The notes under the pieces are model-generated. The model ran no database searches and had not been told where the DNA came from. It was given only the letters and a program-made list of their open reading frames with translations. 64,000 nucleotides of DNA, from sequence record MT129654.1. One strand, 5' to 3'. The stretch comes from Escherichia phage MN04. Of the stretch, positions 14,487-63,196 are shown in pieces. The position numbers and the translations under genes were made by a program. The first letter of the stretch is position 1; every line of letters begins with the position of its first letter.

Positions 14487-17400
14487 TTATTTTAACAATG
14501 ATTTAACTAAAGCTTTAAGTTCTTCAATCTCTGATTTCAATTCTGTTATTTCGGCAGTATGCTCATTGATTGCAGCTGTATTTAAACCAATTACACCGTT
14601 ATAGTTCAAACGAAGTAAAGCTTCACTATTAGGGTCACCTTCAACCAATTCAGGTAAAATAGCTTGAACTTCTTGGGCAATTAAACCAGCATTAGGTTCC
14701 CATTTCTGATTACCTTCCTCATCTAGGCCTCGCTTCTGCATATAAGTGTAACCGTTAATTTTAGAAAGCTTCTGAGAAGCATTTTCAAATTTAACAAGGT
14801 CTTTTTTAACGCGAATATCAGAACGAACATAAACATCACGGACATATGTAGAATAGGCATCACTTTGTTGGATTAAATGACCAAAAGAAATAATAGCCCT
14901 TCCTGTTTCGGTCCACAAAGCACCGGTGGTATCCCAAAGACCTTGATGGATATGGTAAGAGCTAGACCAAGATGCAATATGCATACCATTGGCAACCATA
15001 TTGATTCGGCCATCACCGCCGTGTGATAATCCTGTGTCATTATCACCAATAGCAATACTAGGAGAGCCTAATCCGTTAACAGTTCCAACACCAATGGCAG
15101 GAGTCTGGACTAAAGTCGGGGCGTAAAATAAACCGCTAGAGTGGAATTCGAAAATACCTACAGGACCGTCGCCACGCTCGGCATTACCTACTCGAATTAT
15201 CGCTTGTCCCCATGCTTGTGGAGTACGACGCATGCCTAATTCAACAGAAGTAGTATAACCCTGACCACTAATTACAGATCGGCCTTTAATAATGGGATAA
15301 TAACTGTCTTCACCCACACTACCAAACTCAAGGAAATAAGGTGCTTCTAAGCCCCATTGGTCACCCCATGCACCAGATTTATGTGCAATCCAGTTGGAAC
15401 CGTTCATATAAATACGGTCTCGGTTTACATTGAATACTGAAGCACCTTGTGGAGATAAAACAACCTCACCATTATGGGTGATATTAATACCACCTTGGGA
15501 TTGGAAGCTCCAGAAGGCTAAACCGTTATCAGCACCACCATTACCTACATACCAGTTATCAACACCACCTTTTTTACCCTTAACATAACCAGCTTCATCT
15601 GCCGGATAATCAATAACAATAGCGTCTGAATTGGTTTTAAGAGTTAAGCGGCCTGTCATTGTGTCCCCGCCTTTACCAACACGAGTATTCACCGCTGCGT
15701 CAAGGTTAGTAGCACCGCTATACTTGTTCCAAATAGAACCTGCAATATTACCATCAGTATTCATGAAAGCTGTACCGGCATATAAGCGGTTCTGAGCCAT
15801 GAAGTTACCTTCTTTGGTAAAGCGCCAATATTTTAATCCTGTAGCATCACCATCACCAAGCAAATCACCTTGAGCAACAATTCGATATTCACTTGTAGCT
15901 CGGTCCATACCTTGAGTAACAGTTACGTTCGAATCAATATTTTTCTGCTTAGTAATAGGGTAAAATGCTTGAGTTGCAGCATCGAGCGTTTGATATACCA
16001 GAGCTTTAGTCGTGTTCTGGTTGGCATAAGATGCACCGTTACTATTAGGGAATTCTAATGCACCATTACCCCTAAAATAAACCTGGTCTGCTTCTAAGTT
16101 AGGGATTTTAACCCGACCGGTGTCTAACATAATACTTAATGGGCGTAATGGACCCAATCCGCCACTTTCACCAGCATTAACATTGGTTGGGATAATATGT
16201 AGCTGGTCTTCTGAATTTCGAAAAATAACACCATACTTATCATTCCAAATACGAAGACCACTAGCAGCGCGGACTTTAATTTCATTGGAAACATATAGAT
16301 TGCGTTTTAAAGATGTATCTTGACTGACAGACAATCCTTCGACGATGTTCATCGTGCCGTTTAAATAAGATTCGACTTTACCTGCCGTATTTCGTTGAAT
16401 ATAGTGCATCCAGCCGGTAGCATCAGATGTTTCCAATACGTTTTTACGAGAACCACCTACCGTATTAAAAGTGTCACCCCAACCTTTGAGCTCTATATTA
16501 TCAACTGAACTATATCCTGAGGTACTTCCTTTAAAAAGCACAGTGGAAGCGTTACCACGACCGTCAATATTAACCGAACCACCACGGACTTCAACGTTAC
16601 CAGGAGTAACCAACAACCCACCATCAGTGTTAACGTTTGTTACACCTTTACCACGGAAATAATGGTGGTATTTACCACTCTGATGATAACCTAAAAGAGT
16701 CTGCCCATCACCAAAGCCGTTTTTATCATTAGTAGTATTAACAATAACTAATGGATAGTTTTGAGCTGTAGGAAGAATTAAATCAGAACCGTTGGTTGAA
16801 TAACCCGCAACTAACTGTTTAAGGCTTGTAACTTCAGTCGGAGTTGTAAGTAAAGTATAAGCTCCATTATTAACTGTATGGAACTGGCCGTCTTGTTTCC
16901 ATTTCAAACCTGTGTTATTGTCACCAAGAGCAATTGAAGCCGTCCCTAATTCAGAATATCCTTTAGGGCCACCTGGAAGACCTACAGAAATAGAATGACC
17001 GGCTTTCAATCCACCTGCCCAGTTAAACGACAAAATATAAGTGTCTAAGCCATCTCCGGAATACCAGGCTATTCCGTCATTAACATTAACTTCGTGGAAA
17101 ATACCTGCTCCTACAGCATTTCGCATAACACGGAGGTGGTTAATAGCCGTTTCGCTTTCTGCCAATGGAGTGTTATTTGATAATGAAGATATATCGTAAT
17201 CGCCGGCGGCTTTACCGTCGGTAATAACTTTATTAGTATAAATTATTGGAGATTTTACCGATGTTCCACCAGAAATAGATGGAGCATAAAATAAACCGTC
17301 ACCGTTGAATGCAAAAATATTAGATGTTGAATTAGTGTAATCCTGAACACGAACATTTAAGATTTGCTTGGTATCCCCAGCACGGTTTTGAGAATAAATT

Positions 17401-17801
17401 ATGCCTCTTTCACGCGCATCAGCCAAATCCTGGAATCGAACGTGGGTAGTTCCTGCACCCCGTACAAGAACTTCACCGTTATCTGTCATTAGGCGAGATT
17501 TTGCTGTGATATCACCATTTGCTGTTATACTTCCGGATGTCGTATAACTACCTGTTTGGGTAAAAGCACCCTTCAGGGCATAATCGCCGGTCTGGTTGTA
17601 GTTACCGTTATGAATAACGTTTCCGTCGATATTACCACCTTTAGCAAAGCCAAGGTCGATAATCGCTCCAGTGTCATCTTTGGTAAATAACAAACGGTCT
17701 TTTAAGTTAATAGCCAGCTCGCCTTCAGCCAACTGCGCTGGCGTAGGACGTACACCAGCTACTTTACTTCTTTTAAATTGTATCTGTTTTAAAGTAGCCA
17801 T
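14487..17801 (-). CDS. 37: long tail fibre distal subunit gp37 with C-terminal intramolecular-chaperone-like domain
   Basis: 1104 aa; synteny 34-35-36-37-38; C-terminal SDIRVK...GLIAQEVQ motif. Confidence 0.9.
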
Positions 17802-22600: not shown

Positions 22601-23717
22601 TATCACCTACAGCGGCCTTAATATTTACTGTCTGTGCTTTACGAAGATAGTTCAATGCGATTTTAATAGTATCGCCTTGTGCTACGCTAGTAGGTAAAGT
22701 GATGTTAATAGTTTGTGGAGTTGTGTTATTAGGACCAAAAACAATAATACTTTCGTTAGCCAAAAGTTCTACGTCATCACGAATAACACGCAGACGAGTT
22801 TGACGGTCACCGTCCCAAACATACCACATTTTTTCAACAGAGTTATAAACAAAGAATCCATCACCAGAGGTACGGAATTCCATGCTATGCTGGCCAGGCT
22901 TACCTAATGAAGATGACGCATCAAACGTTTCAACTACTAAATGGAACTTACTTCCAAGACCATCGATATCAACGGTTTTAACCATATCACCTTGGTTTGC
23001 ATACTTAGGAAGAGTAAATTTAATTACTGCACCTGAAGTATAACGACGTAAAACGTTATCACCTGCTTGAGCTTGGAACTGTGCAGTATTGGGCTCTACG
23101 CGAATACCACGTTCTTCGTTACCTGCTTCCCAGAAATGCCAAAGGCGGTTAGCAAAGATAAGCATGTTATAAGAAAAAGGCTTCGTAATTAAGGTCTCAG
23201 TAAACTGATTACCAAAACGAACAATTTTCTGGTTACCGCCACCAGGAGCAGAACTAGATTGGACCTTTATTTCGTTATAACCAACACGTCCACCGATATC
23301 TTTAATTACAACGGTATCGCCATCAGTAGGGTTCGGAGGCAGGGTAAATGTAGTAAAGCTAGCAGCAGAATCCACAGCAATATATTCACCGGAAGCCAGC
23401 TGGCGTGTAGGAGATGCTACGGTAATCCATTTAGGGTCAGTACGGGTAGCAGTCCAATAACCAGGTACAAAGGCTCCTGCTGGAGCATTGATATCACGTT
23501 GAGCAACCCAAATACGTTGGTCATGGATTACTGCAAACCCTTTCTTATATCCGCGCGTCTCGTCGTACGCCTGGATGGTGTTCTCATCTATAAAGAATTC
23601 AACGTTGACGCCATCATCTAATACATTGTAATCGGCTTTGGCAACATTGATAACTTTCTCGCCCGCAGCATCGAGTCCGGATGTAGCACGGAATGCAGGT
23701 TTTAAAATATCAGCCAT
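19668..23717 (-). CDS. 34: long tail fibre proximal subunit gp34
   Basis: 1349 aa; internal repeats ATETRRG(I/V)A(R/E)IAT; C-terminus PDPVTKSVKFEWIE; late promoter upstream. Confidence 0.9.
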   Translation of the reverse strand: MADILKPAFRATSGLDAAGEKVINVAKADYNVLDDGVNVEFFIDENTIQAYDETRGYKKGFAVIHDQRIWVAQRDINAPAGAFVPGYWTATRTDPKWITVASPTRQLASGEYIAVDSAASFTTFTLPPNPTDGDTVVIKDIGGRVGYNEIKVQSSSAPGGGNQKIVRFGNQFTETLITKPFSYNMLIFANRLWHFWEAGNEERGIRVEPNTAQFQAQAGDNVLRRYTSGAVIKFTLPKYANQGDMVKTVDIDGLGSKFHLVVETFDASSSLGKPGQHSMEFRTSGDGFFVYNSVEKMWYVWDGDRQTRLRVIRDDVELLANESIIVFGPNNTTPQTINITLPTSVAQGDTIKIALNYLRKAQTVNIKAAVGDKIASSVQLLQFPKRSEYPPDTEWVLNDVLTFNGNISYTPVIELSYIEDTTTGGKYWVVAQNVPTVERVDSKDDLTRARLGVIALASQTQANVDHENNPEKELAITPQTLANRVATETRRGIARIATTAQVNQDTTFAFQDDLIISPKKLNERTATETRRGVAEIATQQETDAGVDDTTIITPKKLQTRQGTESLSGIVKYTSTVDTTPATARDTVGTNVYNKNVGNLVISPKALDQYKATQAQQGTVYLSTQSEVNTGQSASGFANSAVSPETLHARVALDTRTGLIEIATQVETDTGTDYTRAVTPKTLNDRKATEGLTGIARIATQAEFDAGTLDNVISTPLKIKTRLNDTARTSVSAASGLIESGTLWNHYTLDIREANETQRGTARLATQTEVNVGTDDKTIITPLKLHSKKSTESSEGIIRVATNTETTAGTSKVLAVSPSGLKYVVQSETTWEATALRRGFVKLTEGALTYSGNKVTGSGVKFNSGTGLYENDDTVLNAANYPKTGYAVSSYEMNKTLQNFLPINATAVNSEKLDGLDSLQFIRRDVDQTVNGSLILTKQLNLAAPLVSSSTANITGNTILGSLEVTGNSTFKNDVSVSSGKSIKFVGPQSGAGTWNSQGDTLAPIFAEINSTPDAKFHPIVKQRLGQGTFSLGTVNDGTRDFKIHYLPSPGSLESSYWTFNTTGDFAVNSGSISISKNANITGITTSNGVSTTTLNASALSSLQNVTTSGTIVSTGQVSANNGLVAQKYVRSVGVKPTLASQAPTAETVGFWSVDINDSATFNLFPGYWTMKTKRQVNIDTVQTKPAGVSDEIWNASGWLTETGAFSSPAIRYRNEDGSFGDEVLGTSGQKLRGTWFDYSVRDKEVKYPGTLTQFGNTLDSCYQDWVCYPTGLNGGTIRYTRTWQKNKNAWTTFSMVYTADNPPSAEEVGALPADNATMGNITILDWLRIGNVRIIPDPVTKSVKFEWIE

Positions 23718-23749
23718 TTTATTTCCTTTTCGTTTTCAGGGTATAGAAC

Positions 23750-23757
23750 TATTTATA
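23750..23757 (-). promoter_or_regulatory. late promoter (TATAAATA) for gene 34
   Basis: Reverse complement reads TATAAATA about 35 nt upstream of gene 34 start. Confidence 0.6.
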
Positions 23758-23764
23758 GCAAAGT

Positions 23765-23793
23765 GTTTACTTCTTCCAGGGCCATGATATAAT
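23765..23793 (+). promoter_or_regulatory. early promoter of rnh
   Basis: GTTTAC, 17 nt, TATAAT. Confidence 0.6.
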
Positions 23794-23824
23794 AACCTTC
23801 TACACTAATTGGACAGAGGTTCAT

Positions 23825-24772
23825 ATGAACGATTTAGATTTTTTACTTCCTGAAGAAGACCAACAAAAAGATGGATTTTTACTCCTGGATTTCAGCCAAA
23901 TCATTATGGCGGCAGCCTTCCAAGAATTTGGTGAAAACGCTGGATTTCCTAAAGTAACAACAGCAATGCTTCGACATCTCGTCTTGAATTCAATCAAGAA
24001 AAACATTAAAGACTTTAAAAAACAAGGTTACAACCAACTAATCATTTGTGTTGATAACTCTAAATCAGGTTATTGGCGTCGTCGTTATTCTTCTTATTAT
24101 AAGAAAAACCGTGCTAAGGCACGTGACGAATCACCATTTGATTGGGAAGGCTTATTCACTGCAATGCATATTATTGTGGATGAGCTTGAACAAAACATGC
24201 CTTATATTGTTATGAATATCGACACAATCGAGGCCGATGACCATATTGCTGTATTGACTCGCATCCTTACGGCTTTAGGTCATCCTGTTATGATTGGCTC
24301 TTCTGATGGTGACTTTACCCAACTTCATAAATTCCCTGGTGTAAAACAATGGTCTCCAATGCAGAAAAAATTCGTCAAAACAAAATCTGGTGATGCTCTG
24401 CTTGATTGTGTGACCAAGGTTGTTAAAGGTGACCGCAAGGATAACGTTGCAAGTATTAAAGTTCGTGGTGATTATTGGTTGACAATGGTTGAAGGTGAAC
24501 GTACTCCTAGCACTCGTGCTAAGGAACTTGAAGCAATTGCTCTGAATTATTATGACCATGATATAATTAAAACACTTCTTACTGAGGAACAATATGAACG
24601 TTTCTGTGAAAACCAAATCTTAATTGATATGGACTTTATTCCAGATGATATTGTTGCTTTAATTACTGAAAGATATAATACGTATAACAAACCTTCGAAA
24701 TCTAAAGTTTATCCTTATTTCGTTAAATCAGGTTTGTCTAAACTAACTGCTACAGTAGCTGATTTTTATTAA
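23825..24772 (+). CDS. rnh: RNase H (5'-3' exonuclease / flap endonuclease)
   Basis: 315 aa; GYWRRRYSSYYKKNR, EADDHIAVL, SSDGDFTQLHK motifs match T4 RNase H. Confidence 0.9.
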   Translation: MNDLDFLLPEEDQQKDGFLLLDFSQIIMAAAFQEFGENAGFPKVTTAMLRHLVLNSIKKNIKDFKKQGYNQLIICVDNSKSGYWRRRYSSYYKKNRAKARDESPFDWEGLFTAMHIIVDELEQNMPYIVMNIDTIEADDHIAVLTRILTALGHPVMIGSSDGDFTQLHKFPGVKQWSPMQKKFVKTKSGDALLDCVTKVVKGDRKDNVASIKVRGDYWLTMVEGERTPSTRAKELEAIALNYYDHDIIKTLLTEEQYERFCENQILIDMDFIPDDIVALITERYNTYNKPSKSKVYPYFVKSGLSKLTATVADFY

Positions 24773-24782
24773 GGTGAATATA

Positions 24783-25052
24783 ATGGCTAAAGAAAAAGTG
24801 AAAGTTGAATTCAACCAAGAAGAACATGGTAATACCCTGGCCCAGTTGATTAAAACTGCTTCCGATACTAAATTAAAAATGGAAGCATATGGTGACGAAA
24901 TTAAAGATATCAAAGACCGTGCTAAGACTGAACTTGGTGTAGACGGTAAAATGTTTAACCAGCTGTTCTCCTTGTATCATAAAGGCACTCGTGAACGTTT
25001 CGAAGACGAAAAAACTGAAGTGGTAGAACTGTATGACACAATCTTTGAATGA
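24783..25052 (+). CDS. dsbA: dsDNA-binding late transcription protein DsbA
   Basis: 89 aa from first ATG (track start GTG 24774), same length as T4 DsbA; synteny rnh-dsbA-33. Confidence 0.7.
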   Translation: MAKEKVKVEFNQEEHGNTLAQLIKTASDTKLKMEAYGDEIKDIKDRAKTELGVDGKMFNQLFSLYHKGTRERFEDEKTEVVELYDTIFE

Positions 25053-25335
25053 TTTTGATGGAGCGGTTAATACCGCTTCTGAACCTGTCCATGTATTGGT
25101 AAACAAACAACAGAATGGCCTTGATATTGAGGCCTTTGTTGAGGCTGAAGGGTGTAGTTACCTCGAAGCGGCTACCGCATGGTTGGAAGAGAACAGCATC
25201 CCTGAAGGTAACTTTGCTCGTTATTTGCCTGCAGGAATTATTGATAAAATTATGAACGAGGCCATTGATGATAACTTGCTTCGTCCTTCAATGGCACGAA
25301 CGCAAAAAACTAATACTCTGGATTTCTTGTTATGA
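25033..25335 (+). CDS. 33: late transcription co-activator gp33
   Basis: 100 aa; C-terminus LLRPSMARTQKTNTLDFLL resembles T4 gp33. Confidence 0.7.
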   Translation: MTQSLNDFDGAVNTASEPVHVLVNKQQNGLDIEAFVEAEGCSYLEAATAWLEENSIPEGNFARYLPAGIIDKIMNEAIDDNLLRPSMARTQKTNTLDFLL

Positions 25336-31001: not shown

Positions 31002-31295
31002 ATGAGAGTCTGTAGAGTTGTTAACAAGTATAAAGAAGATTTTGATGTCAATATCCAGCGTGGAACTATGTGGGGTAATCCATTTAAAGACGGTACCCGC
31101 GAGGAAAACATCAAGAACTTTAAAGAATACTTTATTGCTAAAATAAAATCGGGTGAAATTAAAAGAGAACATCTTGAAACCCTTAGAGGTATGCGAATAG
31201 CGTGTACCTGTAAACCTAAGGACTGTCATGGGGATGTGATAGCCCTGGTTGTTAACAAACTTTTCAAAGATACGTTCTCATTAGAAGACCTATAA
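31002..31295 (+). CDS. hypothetical Cys/His-containing protein (97 aa)
   Basis: ATG-initiated ORF; WGNPF and CTCKPKDCHGD motifs. Confidence 0.4.
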   Translation: MRVCRVVNKYKEDFDVNIQRGTMWGNPFKDGTREENIKNFKEYFIAKIKSGEIKREHLETLRGMRIACTCKPKDCHGDVIALVVNKLFKDTFSLEDL

Positions 31296-31361
31296 ATATC
31301 AGTCCATGCTTAACAGGTTCTATGATAGAATAATTGTAGAACCTAACATATTGAGGAAATT

Positions 31362-42434: not shown

Positions 42435-42442
42435 TATAAATA
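42435..42442 (+). promoter_or_regulatory. late promoter motif TATAAATA upstream of rIII
   Basis: Exact T4 late consensus just after gene 31 stop. Confidence 0.4.
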
Positions 42443-42580: not shown

Positions 42581-42829
42581 ATGAACAAACATCTGAATCA
42601 CGCTCTTGAACTGCAACGCAACGCTTGGAACAACGGTCACGAAAACTACGGCGCATCTATTGATGTTGAAGCCGAAGCACTGGAAATCCTGCGTTATTTC
42701 AAACATCTTAATCCGGCTCAGGCTACTCTGGCTGCTGAATTGGAAGCAAAAGATGAACTGAAATATGCTAAGCCTTTGGCTTCAGCAGCTCGTAAAGCAG
42801 TACGTCATTTTATTATTACCCTGAAGTAA
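42581..42829 (+). CDS. rIII: rIII lysis-inhibition accessory protein
   Basis: 82 aa from ATG 42581, same length as T4 RIII; MNKHLNHALELQRN start; track start 42527 non-ATG. Confidence 0.75.
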   Translation: MNKHLNHALELQRNAWNNGHENYGASIDVEAEALEILRYFKHLNPAQATLAAELEAKDELKYAKPLASAARKAVRHFIITLK

Positions 42830-56966: not shown

Positions 56967-58089
56967 TTTTAACCTTCGGTGGCTCTTCAATCTTAATAGG
57001 CTTACCATTAGTAAACATATAAAGGTTTGTAATTGATGTATTGTTACTCACTTCATGAATAACTTCGTCTACATAAAAATCGTATTGGAATTGGTTTTTA
57101 GGGTCATAGAAGTTAATCTTATCACCCGGAGTTAATTCAAAGTTCCCGTATACCTTGCAATGTGCGTACCCATCATACTGGGCCATTGTAACTAATCTAT
57201 CAGCTTCTTCAAATCCGTTTCGGTAGGTATAATCGGAATATCCGCCTGAACGAGAAACCAATATACTGTTTTGTCCATCACCAAAAGTAATTCGTGTAGC
57301 GTTTTTATCTAAGAACGAATGGGCGTATACTGTAGCATTTTCGTACGGTTTTCGGGTATGTTGGTTAGCTTTAGTTAACCACTCAAAATCAAATGCAATA
57401 GGAGTATCCATATCTTGGACGTATTGGCCTATTAAACGAGGCTCACCAACCACAAAATTGATAGGCTCTTGATTAACCATAAATTCGTAGTCCATGATAG
57501 AAATACCATCTATATCTTCCCAGACAAATACAAATTTATCAGATTCAACAGCCATACCTACTTCTCGCACAAATTCCATATATCTGTCCATTGAATCACA
57601 CCAAGGAACGTTAGGAACGTAAACGTTTATTCCGTTCAAAGGAGGAGCAAGTAATGGGCGGTCTTGATAAATAACCCCAATCATTTCGGTTAATGTTTCT
57701 TGAACGCTAGGGAAGAACATACGTCCGAATTTAAGATTTTCTAAAAAGTGGATAGGGGCGAGTTGTATTGTTATGATATTGTCGCCCTTAGAATCCACCC
57801 CTACTGCAAAGTGTTTACTTCCGTAAATTCTTGATTGGGTACGTTCCGAGTTGGCATTCTTAACAGAAACTTGGATAATTTGTTCACCATCCATTTTAGT
57901 ATGAAGGTTTTTTGCATCATAAAACTGGAGCAATCCTTCATTATTACCATAAAGACCATCTCGCATTGTTAGGGTAGTAAATGTCGCGCCTAGTTCAACA
58001 AAACGATGCTCTAACCAGGCGTCATAATCTTCGTAAAGGCGTATACTAATATTAGGAAAGCCTTCACGCTGCATAGTTTTTGAACTCAT
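56920..58089 (-). CDS. 27: baseplate hub subunit gp27
   Basis: 389 aa; [49 protein letters not shown] matches T4 gp27. Confidence 0.85.
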
Positions 58090-58838
58090 TTCTTAAGGTC
58101 CTTTTCAACCAAAGACAAAGCAATACCACGTTCGATTGGAATCATCTGCATAATGCTTTCTAATGAATAGTTGTTCTTTACCAGTAAATGGTTTATTTGG
58201 TAAAATAAAAATATCTCATCCGGATTGACTATAAGTTTAAACACTTCTAAAATGTCAGTGTATGTAATTGTTCTACGATTACAGCACCCATATTTGAGCT
58301 CGAAATGAATAGGGCTTGTTTGTTTGACTATATCCTCTAAAGTAGATAAGTCTATAGCATCTATTACGGCTAACTGGTCTTCTTCAGAAAGGTCTGTCCA
58401 GTTATAAACCCCATTTTCATCTTCTACTGACTGGAGGGTATTCAAAATCAATTCAGATTTATCATGATATTCTATTTCAGGGAATTTGAATGTCAATTTC
58501 AAGCCGGCCACTTCAATTGTAGGGTTAACTAACTTGGTCTGCTTCAAATTGAATAAAACTTGTCTATCCTTTTCACACTTACTGCAAGTGTATCGGATAG
58601 GAATTTTGGTCTTGCCGAGAGATGACGTATACAATTCAATAAACATGTATGGGCGCCATGACACAGGGTACTCACCAAAGTATTCTTCCAGTAACTCATC
58701 TAAAATTTGTTTTTGCTCTTCAGGTGATTTATTATTCATATCATTTCGAATCAAAATAAAATCACGATAATCAGCTACTGTAAAAGGTTTAAATCGGTGG
58801 ACTCCATCAGGCATTTCGCAACGTACTATATTAGCCAT
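58086..58838 (-). CDS. 51: baseplate hub assembly catalyst gp51
   Basis: Start moved to ATG 58838 with AGAGGA SD (250 aa; T4 gp51 249 aa); track start is TTG; Cys-rich. Confidence 0.7.
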
Positions 58839-58858
58839 AGGGTATCCTCTTATTGATG

Positions 58859-58870
58859 TATTTATAAATA
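58859..58870. promoter_or_regulatory. overlapping divergent late promoters for gene 51 (minus) and gene 26 (plus)
   Basis: TATTTATAAATA contains TATAAATA on both strands (58859-58866 minus, 58863-58870 plus). Confidence 0.6.
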
Positions 58871-58888
58871 AGCTTAAAGGAGAAGACA

Positions 58889-59512
58889 ATGAATTATACT
58901 TTTGACGTAAAAATTAAAAACAAGACCATAAAATGCAGAGCATTTACCCTCAGAGAGTATAAGGACTTGCTCCAAGCTAAATTAGAAGACAGAATAGAGC
59001 CCTTTATCAATGAACTCATTTTGAATTGCACAGATGCTCGTGGTTTAAACAAGCAAGAATCTGAGCTCCTGGTGATAAACCTGTGGGCCCATTCACTAGC
59101 TGAAGTGAATATAGAACGTGAGTGGGTTTGTAGTTGTGGTCGCTCACAGATTGTCCCTATGACGTTAACTCGCGCTACATTAGGTAAAGAGCCTGATATT
59201 ATTAAGGACTTCGGCAACTTTAAAATAGTGTTCAGATATCCTAAGCTCTTTGAAGACAAAAATAGGGCTATGATGGTTGCAGGATGTATCGATTATATTT
59301 TAACTTCTGCAGGCGAAAAGCTTCTTCTTTCTGATTTAAGTGATGCGGAACTAGACGACCTTTATTCTGTGATAACGGAAAAAGATGTAAAAGAAATTTA
59401 TGATGCTCTAGTCGCCCCTAAGCCTATTTTGGCCATACCTATTTCTTGTGAATGTGGTGAGCATACCGTCCACGTTATTGAGGGACTTAAAGAGTTCTTT
59501 AAGGTGATGTAA
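58889..59512 (+). CDS. 26: baseplate hub subunit gp26
   Basis: 207 aa (T4 gp26 208 aa); ATG after AAGGAGAAG SD and late promoter TATAAATA. Confidence 0.75.
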   Translation: MNYTFDVKIKNKTIKCRAFTLREYKDLLQAKLEDRIEPFINELILNCTDARGLNKQESELLVINLWAHSLAEVNIEREWVCSCGRSQIVPMTLTRATLGKEPDIIKDFGNFKIVFRYPKLFEDKNRAMMVAGCIDYILTSAGEKLLLSDLSDAELDDLYSVITEKDVKEIYDALVAPKPILAIPISCECGEHTVHVIEGLKEFFKVM

Positions 59513-60748: not shown

Positions 60749-60976
60749 TTAGAAATCTTCCTCTTCCTCGTCGTCCATCGACTCCAATTCAGCTCTCTTA
60801 CCAGCCAATGCATCACGCACGCTAATATCGTCCGAATCACGAAGTTCAGCTTCCTTACTACGAGTTTTGTAATACTTCTCTAATTCCTCCAGACCTTCCA
60901 TGGTCTGACAGGAACTAATTTTAGACATGAAGCTCTCGATAGAGGCTTCATAGATAACTTCTTTAAAGGACTTCAT
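60749..60976 (-). CDS. uvsW.1: UvsW.1 small protein
   Basis: 75 aa acidic C-terminus; immediately downstream of uvsW as in T4. Confidence 0.6.
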   Translation of the reverse strand: MKSFKEVIYEASIESFMSKISSCQTMEGLEELEKYYKTRSKEAELRDSDDISVRDALAGKRAELESMDDEEEEDF

Positions 60977-62469
60977 AAATCCACCTGTTTCATTACGTAA
61001 TTAAATTTCTCGTCAGCATAACGTTGAATACGTTCTAAGGCATGTTTTAATGCATAATTCAAATGAACATATTTCTTTTTAGCATTTGCTGATTTAGGCT
61101 TAACGCCCATGTCGTCTATAATGTCCCAAACTTGTGCTGTTGATTTAGAAGCATGTTTACGGAGTACACGACCAATTGTCTGGAGTACAATGATTTTGGA
61201 TTTTACCGGATGAGCAAATACAACATGATGAAGGTTCTTAACGGAAATACCAGTAGAGAACACACCATAACTTGCCACAACAATAATACCCTTACCATTT
61301 TCCGCCATTACTTTCAGAGCATTACGCGTTTCGGTATTAACTTCACCTGATACGTAATAAACTTCTTTATGTTGCTCTTTAACCATTTCAAAAAGAGTTT
61401 TACCGTGTTCGATGTTTTTAAACATCAGGAATACGTTCTCTTCTTTCTTAGCGAGTTTAACAGCTAAATTAGCAACCCATTTATTACGACGAGTAGCCTT
61501 AGTAATGACCTTTATTTCTGATTGGTAATCTTTACCTTTCATCTTAACAGTGAATTCATCCGGATAACGAAGGAAAATACTGTTGATTTTAAGGTCTGTA
61601 ACCTGTCCTTCTTCCATTAACTGTGAAGTGGATACTGGCTTAAACACATCACCAAACAAACCCATATACTGCATTAAATTGGCTTTACCATCTTTTAAAG
61701 AACCGGACAAACCGAATTTAAACATACAATTGGTTAGGCCTTCGATGATGGTAGAAATTGATTTACCTGTCGCCAAATGGCATTCGTCGTTCATAAACAT
61801 ACCAAACTGAGCAAACCATTCTTTAGGTTGTTTAATAGCCGTTTGATAAGTTGAAACATAAATCATTGCATCGGAATCACGAGCAGTACCTGAACGAATA
61901 CCAAGCATAGCATCTTTAGGGAACAAACGATAATCAATGAAGTCATTAATCATCTGGTCGACAAGTGCAGTAGTAGGAACTAAGATAAGAATTTTACCTT
62001 CATAGTTCTCAACGTAATATCGACTAAGGAGCGCCTGAATCAATGATTTACCTGCAGATGTAGGTAAATTCAGAATTGCACGACGTTTTGTCAGACCGTT
62101 GTATACGGCTTCATTCTGATACCAATGTGGCTCAATCTTGGTAGAACCTGAATAAATCTCTTGTGAAGCTACCCATGAGTCAAAATCTTCACGTGAAATA
62201 TCTTCTTGTTCAAGAATTCGTGGGTCTATCCAAAGAGAGTATTCAAACTGGTCAGCGAATTTTTTAATTTGTGGGACTAGACCATACGGGAGTTTACGGT
62301 TATAATCTAGAAGACGAATTCTCCCATCCCATTGCCCGTAACGGTATTTAGGGTTAAATTTATATCCATCAGCTTCAAAGCTGAAATAGTCTCTGAGTTC
62401 GTAGAAGGTGGATTCATCACACTCAACACGAACATGACTAAAATTATCAAAATGTACTTGAATTTGCAT
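60973..62469 (-). CDS. uvsW: RNA-DNA and DNA-DNA helicase UvsW
   Basis: 498 aa; Walker A LPTSAGKS; DECH box MNDECHL; matches T4 UvsW. Confidence 0.85.
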   Translation of the reverse strand: MQIQVHFDNFSHVRVECDESTFYELRDYFSFEADGYKFNPKYRYGQWDGRIRLLDYNRKLPYGLVPQIKKFADQFEYSLWIDPRILEQEDISREDFDSWVASQEIYSGSTKIEPHWYQNEAVYNGLTKRRAILNLPTSAGKSLIQALLSRYYVENYEGKILILVPTTALVDQMINDFIDYRLFPKDAMLGIRSGTARDSDAMIYVSTYQTAIKQPKEWFAQFGMFMNDECHLATGKSISTIIEGLTNCMFKFGLSGSLKDGKANLMQYMGLFGDVFKPVSTSQLMEEGQVTDLKINSIFLRYPDEFTVKMKGKDYQSEIKVITKATRRNKWVANLAVKLAKKEENVFLMFKNIEHGKTLFEMVKEQHKEVYYVSGEVNTETRNALKVMAENGKGIIVVASYGVFSTGISVKNLHHVVFAHPVKSKIIVLQTIGRVLRKHASKSTAQVWDIIDDMGVKPKSANAKKKYVHLNYALKHALERIQRYADEKFNYVMKQVDL

Positions 62470-62483
62470 GTCTAATTCTCAGT

Positions 62484-62505
62484 TATAAATATAACTATAT
62501 TTATA
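62484..62505. promoter_or_regulatory. divergent late promoters for Inh-like gene (plus) and uvsW (minus)
   Basis: TATAAATA at 62484-62491 (plus) and reverse complement at 62498-62505. Confidence 0.5.
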
Positions 62506-62524
62506 CACCAACAAGAGACTAATT

Positions 62525-63196
62525 ATGGATACTCAATATATTGAAGAGCTTCGTGCACTCGAAGATAAAAAAGAAGCTAAAGCTAAGTTAATCGAATACG
62601 GCGAACAGTTCGGTTTAAAACTTAAGAAAACCCGTTCGTTTGATAATTTGATTATCGATATCTCTGAAGGCCTTAAAGCCTTGGCTGACGAACCACTCCC
62701 AGAAACCGAAGGTTTGTCTATTTCTGATTTGATTGATGCTGCTGACGAACTCACCGGTGATAACGATTTTATCGAAGGTGCAGAACCAGCTAAAGAAGAA
62801 GCAACCCTGTTGTTCGATGCTCCTGAGGCGGTTGTTGAAGTAATAGAGGTAGCCGAACTTCCTAAGGTAGAGATTATTGAAGAGGATGCCCCATTTGTCG
62901 AAGAGAAATTCAAAGAGGCTGTAGCCAAGGTTATTGAATCGGAAAAACCTGTGTTCTCTTTACCCGAAAACTTCAGTCCTAATCTTTTGCTTATCGGTAA
63001 GAACCCTGGATTCTGTACTGTTCCATGGTGGATTTATCAGTGGATTTCTGAGACTCCGGATTGGAAAGAACGTCCAACTGCTTTCCCACATCCTACTGCA
63101 CACCAAACACTATTCAGCTTGATTTATTACATCAATCGTAATGGGTCTGTTCTAATACGAGAAACTCGTAACTCATCTTTTGTCACTTTAAAATAA
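62525..63196 (+). CDS. acidic protein at the T4 inh position (possible prohead protease inhibitor Inh)
   Basis: 223 aa; located between uvsW and hoc; late promoter upstream; identity not verified. Confidence 0.4.
   Translation: MDTQYIEELRALEDKKEAKAKLIEYGEQFGLKLKKTRSFDNLIIDISEGLKALADEPLPETEGLSISDLIDAADELTGDNDFIEGAEPAKEEATLLFDAPEAVVEVIEVAELPKVEIIEEDAPFVEEKFKEAVAKVIESEKPVFSLPENFSPNLLLIGKNPGFCTVPWWIYQWISETPDWKERPTAFPHPTAHQTLFSLIYYINRNGSVLIRETRNSSFVTLK

Follow-up and report, generated by a model that had tools for sequence, protein, structure and literature searches.

Paired late promoter boxes on opposite strands in the 51/26 and uvsW/inh gaps of Escherichia phage MN04

How can two oppositely oriented late genes both be transcribed from within 50 bp of DNA, and does such a gap hold one shared site or two separate promoters? 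The question is raised by the gap between genes 51 and 26 of Escherichia phage MN04 (sequence record MT129654.1), of which a stretch of 64,000 nucleotides, hereafter the window, was analysed. A preliminary description of this DNA had proposed that overlapping divergent late promoters occupy the gap, that a similar pair lies between uvsW and an Inh-like gene, and that such an arrangement allows oppositely oriented late genes to be activated together from one site. Based on the sequence of both gaps and comparisons to related phages, combined with published work on T4, we consider it likely that each gap carries two independent late promoters of the T4 type, i.e. of the gp55 type, with one on either strand.

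The two gaps and their predicted starts

A 2-kb stretch of MN04 around the 51/26 site displays 98.5-99% identity to the Dhakavirus phages JS98, JS10 and UP19, with ~1.5% divergence from published JS98 over the compared 2-kb stretch, and judged by this identity the window is that of a JS98/JS10-like Dhakavirus. Following the JS98 annotation in window orientation, a first run of minus-strand genes (54, 48, 29, 28, 27 and 51) is succeeded by 26, 25, uvsY and uvsY.-2 on the plus strand, uvsW.1 and uvsW on the minus strand, and inh and hoc on the plus strand, and the identities of gp51, gp26, UvsW and Inh are backed by family searches. Among the genes of the late apparatus, gene 33 is located inside the window (PF16805) and genes 55 and 45 outside it; the presence of gene 33 suggests that the phage has a T4-type late transcription apparatus. 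The protein gp55 is present in all sequenced T4-related genomes (PMC2988020). The genes referred to below are the following.

58086-58838, minus strand: gene 51, baseplate hub assembly protein (PF12322)
58889-59512, plus strand: gene 26, baseplate hub protein, paralogue of gp51 (PF12322)
60973-62469, minus strand: uvsW helicase gene (JS98 annotation, family search)
62525-63196, plus strand: inh, prohead protease inhibitor gene (JS98 annotation, family search)
25033-25335, plus strand: gene 33, late-transcription co-activator (PF16805)
24783-25052: dsbA, within the window

The 51/26 gap comprises 50 bp (58839-58888), bounded by the gene 51 start codon, which reads CAT on the plus strand at 58836-58838, and by the gene 26 ATG at 58889. 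In agreement with the preliminary description, TATTTATAAATA at 58859-58870 gives the late consensus on both strands with an offset of 4 nt, and both Shine-Dalgarno sequences, AAGGAG on the plus and GAGGA on the minus strand, were located within these 50 bp. The two boxes stand back to back with an overlap of 4 bp, having the central TATA in common.

58859-58870, no strand: 12-nt perfect palindrome TATTTATAAATA, which holds both 51/26 late boxes (from the sequence)
58863-58870, plus strand: TATAAATA box (exact match), predicted late promoter of genes 26-25
58859-58866, minus strand (reads 58866 to 58859): TATAAATA box (exact match), predicted late promoter of the 51-27-28-29-48-54 run
58877-58882, plus strand: Shine-Dalgarno sequence AAGGAG of gene 26, 6 nt from the ATG
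58845-58849, minus strand (58849 to 58845): Shine-Dalgarno sequence GAGGA of gene 51, 6 nt from the ATG

Transcription starts were predicted by placing the box at -13 to -6 (PMC1524935), the late consensus and this placement being those given in two sources (PMC1524935, PMC2988020). The predicted +1 of the gene 26 promoter is then the A at 58876, with a leader of 13 nt, and that of the gene 51 promoter the A at 58853, with a leader of 15 nt, i.e. the predicted starts are 23 bp apart.

The second pair is indeed present at 62484-62505, in the uvsW/inh gap (62470-62524), which separates the uvsW start codon at 62467-62469 on the minus strand from the inh ATG at 62525. It had been described as similar to the first, which does not hold for its geometry, as the uvsW/inh boxes face each other without overlap, unlike those at 51/26.

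62484-62491, plus strand: TATAAATA box (exact match), predicted late promoter of inh(-hoc)
62498-62505, minus strand (62505 to 62498): TATAAATA box (exact match), predicted late promoter of uvsW
62492-62497, no strand: 6-bp spacer TAACTA, start region (-5 to +1) for the promoters facing from either side

Here the predicted +1 is the A at 62497 for inh (leader of 28 nt) and the A at 62492 for uvsW (leader of 23 nt), and since the boxes face across 6 bp, the predicted transcripts overlap by ~6 nt at their 5' ends. We note that this facing arrangement also gives the predicted uvsW and inh mRNAs identical first nine bases, AUAUUUAUA, their 5' ends being complementary over ~6 nt.

All four sites thus combine an exact 8-bp box, a predicted start at an A, and a leader of 13-28 nt with a Shine-Dalgarno sequence, and the boxes, at distances of 18-33 nt from the start codons, face orthologues of T4 late genes (51, 26, uvsW and inh). 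In T4, uvsW expression is driven by a late promoter (PMC3016281), and inh has likewise been cited as having one upstream (PMC2988022). Each strand presents one promoter element inside a single polymerase footprint, and the gap offers no other candidate promoter for the gene that it faces. A scan for sigma-70-type promoters returned no candidate overlapping either site, by which a sigma-70-type reading is ruled out, and inspection by eye for a TGCTT MotA box upstream of the late boxes found none.

The T4 late promoter has no -35 element, only an 8-bp box located upstream of the start by about one turn of the helix (PMC2988020). As the 8-bp box suffices, two promoters and two short leaders with ribosome-binding sites can be fitted into 50-55 bp, making these gaps an example of how a promoter without a -35 element lets two transcription units begin within 50 bp. 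In the mechanism that we propose, drawn from T4 work, the boxes would be read by RNA polymerase carrying gp55, together with gp33, and would be activated by the gp45 clamp in an orientation-specific manner. At 51/26, the back-to-back boxes would start transcripts at 58853 on the minus and at 58876 on the plus strand, and at uvsW/inh the facing boxes would use the 6-bp spacer as start region in both directions, with starts at 62492 (minus) and 62497 (plus). The arrangement would then represent a compaction of two promoters rather than one switch serving both. As genes 26 and 25 point in the early direction, part of their expression could also come from read-through transcription.

Placement and conservation of the paired boxes

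Exact TATAAATA boxes are not enriched in the window, where 9 were observed and 7.1 are expected from whole-window shuffles. With the total so near chance, the count by itself is uninformative, and it is the placement of the boxes that informs. Eight of the nine touch non-coding DNA, which by crude gene calls makes up 7% of the window, and seven are wholly intergenic, compared to a mean of 0.88 when each intergenic segment was shuffled. The 12-nt palindrome appeared in 7 of 2000 shuffles of the intergenic DNA, and at least two opposite-strand box pairs within 30 nt in 0 of 2000. Pure chance as the source of the paired boxes is ruled out by these intergenic shuffles. Among the eight divergent gaps of the window, paired boxes are found in only two, namely those with late genes on both sides.

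The gap between late gene 34 and an early rnh-like gene (23715-23830) holds one late box, at 23750-23757 on the minus strand, which faces gene 34, together with a TATAAT hexamer oriented towards the rnh-like gene at 23788-23793. It provides a control, from within the same window, on the confinement of paired boxes to gaps between two late genes.

At 51/26, the identical 12-mer is found in T4 (record positions 116450-116461), in a gap of equal length (50 bp) between the same two genes; the leader sequences differ, and the arms on either side of the palindrome measure 17 and 21 nt in T4 versus 20 and 18 nt in MN04. The same 12-mer is present at this position in RB69, TH22 (Gaprivervirus), CIP9 (Kanagawavirus), Marfa, JD18 (Jiaodavirus) and TG1 (Tegunavirus), as well as in Meroveus and Henu6, two Acinetobacter phages of Twarogvirinae. 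When the gap was aligned across 11 phages, mean column identity was 52% and the sole fully invariant block was TATTTATAAA, the core of the palindrome. Further relatives were gathered from IMG/VR with a gp26 alignment, an earlier protein-based locus search having given only close relatives. The 12-mer is present in 42 of these 43 IMG/VR loci, and the palindrome lies within the scanned stretch in 29 of the 31 distinct upstream regions, with flanks that vary among the distinct sequences (15 on the left, 18 on the right). The sole exception, locus L059, reads TATAAATA-N7-TATTTATA, i.e. the palindrome is lost and both boxes are retained.

The gene-51-facing box is exact in every examined relative with a head-to-head pair except Aeromonas phage AS-gz, which carries a shorter variant palindrome, TATTTAAATA, at 51/26 (L065, 1551-1598). 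In the Krischvirus GEC-3S, only the gene-51-facing box is exact, and the gene-26-facing box is non-canonical, TATAAAAT; for RB49, of the same genus, the published predictions give a single promoter, at 104826-104868 (plus) near gene 25 (PMC1524935). Taken together, a consensus box is apparently dispensable for gene 26 in this lineage. In Aeromonas phage AS-zj, Vibrio phage nt-1 and a cyanophage, gene 25 adjoins gene 6 and no 26/51 pair was found nearby, which makes these three phages uninformative on 51/26.

At uvsW/inh, TATAAATA-N6-TATTTATA is common to JS98, CIP9, Marfa, JD18 and TG1. T4 has the same facing arrangement and 6-bp spacer at the orthologous position, reading AATAAATA-N6-TATTTATA as does RB69; the inh-facing box is there an A(-13) variant, a form found at 9 of 50 listed T4 late promoter sites (PMC2988020), whereas both MN04 boxes are exact. 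A further difference is that the homing endonuclease gene segE lies between the promoter and uvsW in T4, while uvsW directly follows in MN04. The uvsW-facing box is retained in all Tevenvirinae examined, and the spacer is conserved in its length of 6 bp and variable in sequence. In Acinetobacter phage Meroveus, the uvsW/inh boxes occur in reversed order.

Comparable pairs occur between other genes, outside the MN04 window. In RB69, the boxes of the gene 4/53 gap face each other across 7 bp, TATAAATA-N7-TATTTATA, and there, as at gene 4/48 of Aeh1, late genes flank the gap on both sides with one box per strand. Aeh1 has a CTAAATA consensus of its own, unlike the TATAAATA of MN04. We observed TATTTAGCTAAATA, two abutting CTAAATA boxes, both at Aeh1 4/48 (L018, 987-1038) and at uvsW/inh of Henu6 (L016, 9284-9352).

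Both elements of a pair are hence kept across genera and through changes of geometry, the exception being the gene-26 box in Krischvirus, and this pattern indicates that selection maintains the two of them. Because the back-to-back form and the facing form with 6-7 bp between boxes are interchangeable among relatives with both boxes kept, the comparison favours two promoters over one palindromic protein-binding site, and this represents a small comparative addition of the present work. It argues for a recurring rule, at the level of sequence, in which one box is placed on each strand wherever two late genes diverge and the geometry is free to vary.

Alternative readings of the pairs

The proposal that the promoters are divergent late promoters, each serving the gene that it faces, is sustained by the orthology to T4 late genes, the distances of the boxes to the start codons, the A at +1 and the conservation. 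The further proposal, co-activation of both directions from one site, conflicts with the published polarity of the clamp, its upstream docking and the footprint of the complex. According to the review by Geiduschek and Kassavetis (PMC2988020), the orientation in which the gp45 clamp is loaded determines the sole polarity that it activates. The clamp binds the complex at its upstream end and lengthens the footprint by 13 bp in the upstream direction, and cross-links of gp33 map to -39 and -36/-35. From the docking of the clamp and a footprint of about -40 to +20, an activated complex on either strand would cover roughly the whole gap, partner included. Judging from the published footprints, the partner promoter would therefore be occupied on the same DNA molecule, two activated complexes should exclude each other, and the two directions would take turns, with clamps loaded in opposite orientations driving one or the other.

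These considerations bear on the alternative that the paired boxes constitute one shared regulatory unit, in which a single activation event, or negative supercoiling behind a departing polymerase, starts both directions. The two promoters cannot be physically separated, and conservation of the precise 4-bp overlap is unusually high, both of which would suit such a unit; against it, the activated complex extends to about -40, over the partner promoter (PMC2988020), and relatives exchange one geometry for another (back to back, facing across N6 or N7, reversed order), which speaks against any requirement for one fixed shared structure. We consider a shared unit unlikely.

Just as unlikely, in our estimate, is that the 51/26 overlap has been selected as an either/or toggle between two units headed by the paralogues gp51 and gp26, with clamp orientation picking the direction. 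If this were true, the 51:26 expression ratio would be tied to the local replication direction or to the nicked strand, and the choice of late-gene direction would be linked to clamp orientation at replication forks.

Alternatively, a single box of each pair might work, and the other would have arisen by chance or from the A/T-richness of the upstream sequence. The chance-level total of boxes in the window, the Krischvirus lineage without a canonical gene-26-facing box, and the 2006 predictions, which list no inh-facing promoter in RB69 (PMC1524935), would all be compatible with this. However, the paired configuration is far beyond chance in the shuffles, and no variation across genera was seen in the four bases that each box does not share with the other, yet T4 late promoters are unconserved upstream of the box (PMC2988020). 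In addition, each flanking gene is the first in its direction of transcription, for which the gap holds no other candidate promoter. A single working box per pair is very unlikely on these grounds.

Least credible, and highly improbable, is that the 12-nt palindrome is mainly the operator of a dimeric DNA-binding protein, with the promoter-consensus match secondary. DsbA would be a candidate, its gene lying within the window and the protein being reported to bind A/T-rich sites that overlap two T4 late promoters (PMC2988020), and the palindrome is perfect, with a geometry that is invariant in most relatives; but the reported affinity of DsbA is low and dsbA is non-essential (PMC2988020), and changes of arrangement (L059, uvsW/inh and 4/53) keep both 8-mers and lose the palindrome, with spacers that vary. 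The operator was rejected, as dyad symmetry is not conserved where half-sites are kept: the boxes are split in L059 and stand in reversed order in Meroveus, and the uvsW/inh spacers are variable. Two independent late promoters per gap remain the reading that we prefer.

A separate matter is how the 51/26 pair arose. Both gp51 and gp26 match PF12322 end to end as well as PHROG 150, and BLASTP aligns them with 21% identity over ~200 aa (E = 9e-5); by this similarity the two proteins are paralogues, with the palindrome between their genes. An attractive idea is that one baseplate gene was duplicated in inverted orientation long ago along with its promoter, the palindrome marking the axis. In Klebsiella phage Roth23, which we take to be RB43-like, the two genes are arranged in tandem on one strand (L068, 900-1643 and 1640-2194), and an inverted-duplication origin is thus not established and not claimed here.

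Known pairs and solitary boxes

Late promoters of this kind on both strands are already known. Overlapping late promoters reportedly direct divergent transcription of a T4 base plate gene cluster, in work ascribed to Scarlato et al. in 1989. In the papers covered, phrase searches for divergent or overlapping late promoters gave no match. For T4, a dRNA-seq preprint provides 150 start sites (bioRxiv 10.1101/2024.04.04.588121). Nolan et al. (2006), in their Additional file 5, predicted RB69 late promoters at 118620-118662 (plus) and 118630-118672 (minus) (PMC1524935). These listed entries, Pl:118620 (plus) and Pl:118672 (minus), fall in the RB69 26/51 gap, where gene 26 ends at 118622 and gene 51 starts at 118670, and include TATTTATAAATA. 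The RB69 pair carries the same 12-mer as MN04; it differs in having been predicted by computation, and for a phage of a different genus, Mosigvirus. Similar opposite-strand pairs appear elsewhere among the listed predictions for RB69, where 4/53 is one such site, and for RB49, RB43 and Aeh1 (PMC1524935). The value of the present analysis accordingly lies in the correct annotation of a JS98-like phage, with four predicted late promoters and their likely starts, and little beyond.

Annotation of a relative may be touched as well. In Yersinia phage TG1 (L013, 8720-8764), the annotated uvsW start codon falls inside the spacer between the late boxes, TATAAATAcatataTATTTATA; this annotated start is probably wrong, the real one being further in.

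Other exact boxes of the window lie outside these pairs. The sole TATAAATA within a coding region, at 15407-15414 (plus), is antisense in a 1104-aa minus-strand open reading frame (14487-17801), has no plus-strand gene after it for 8.4 kb, and is probably a chance match. Two others are on the strand of the early direction, one at 31291-31298 (plus), 63 nt upstream of an nrdA-like gene, and one at 42435-42442 (plus), 138 nt upstream of a small open reading frame without a Pfam match (42581-42829); these two are possible late promoters for genes facing the early direction.
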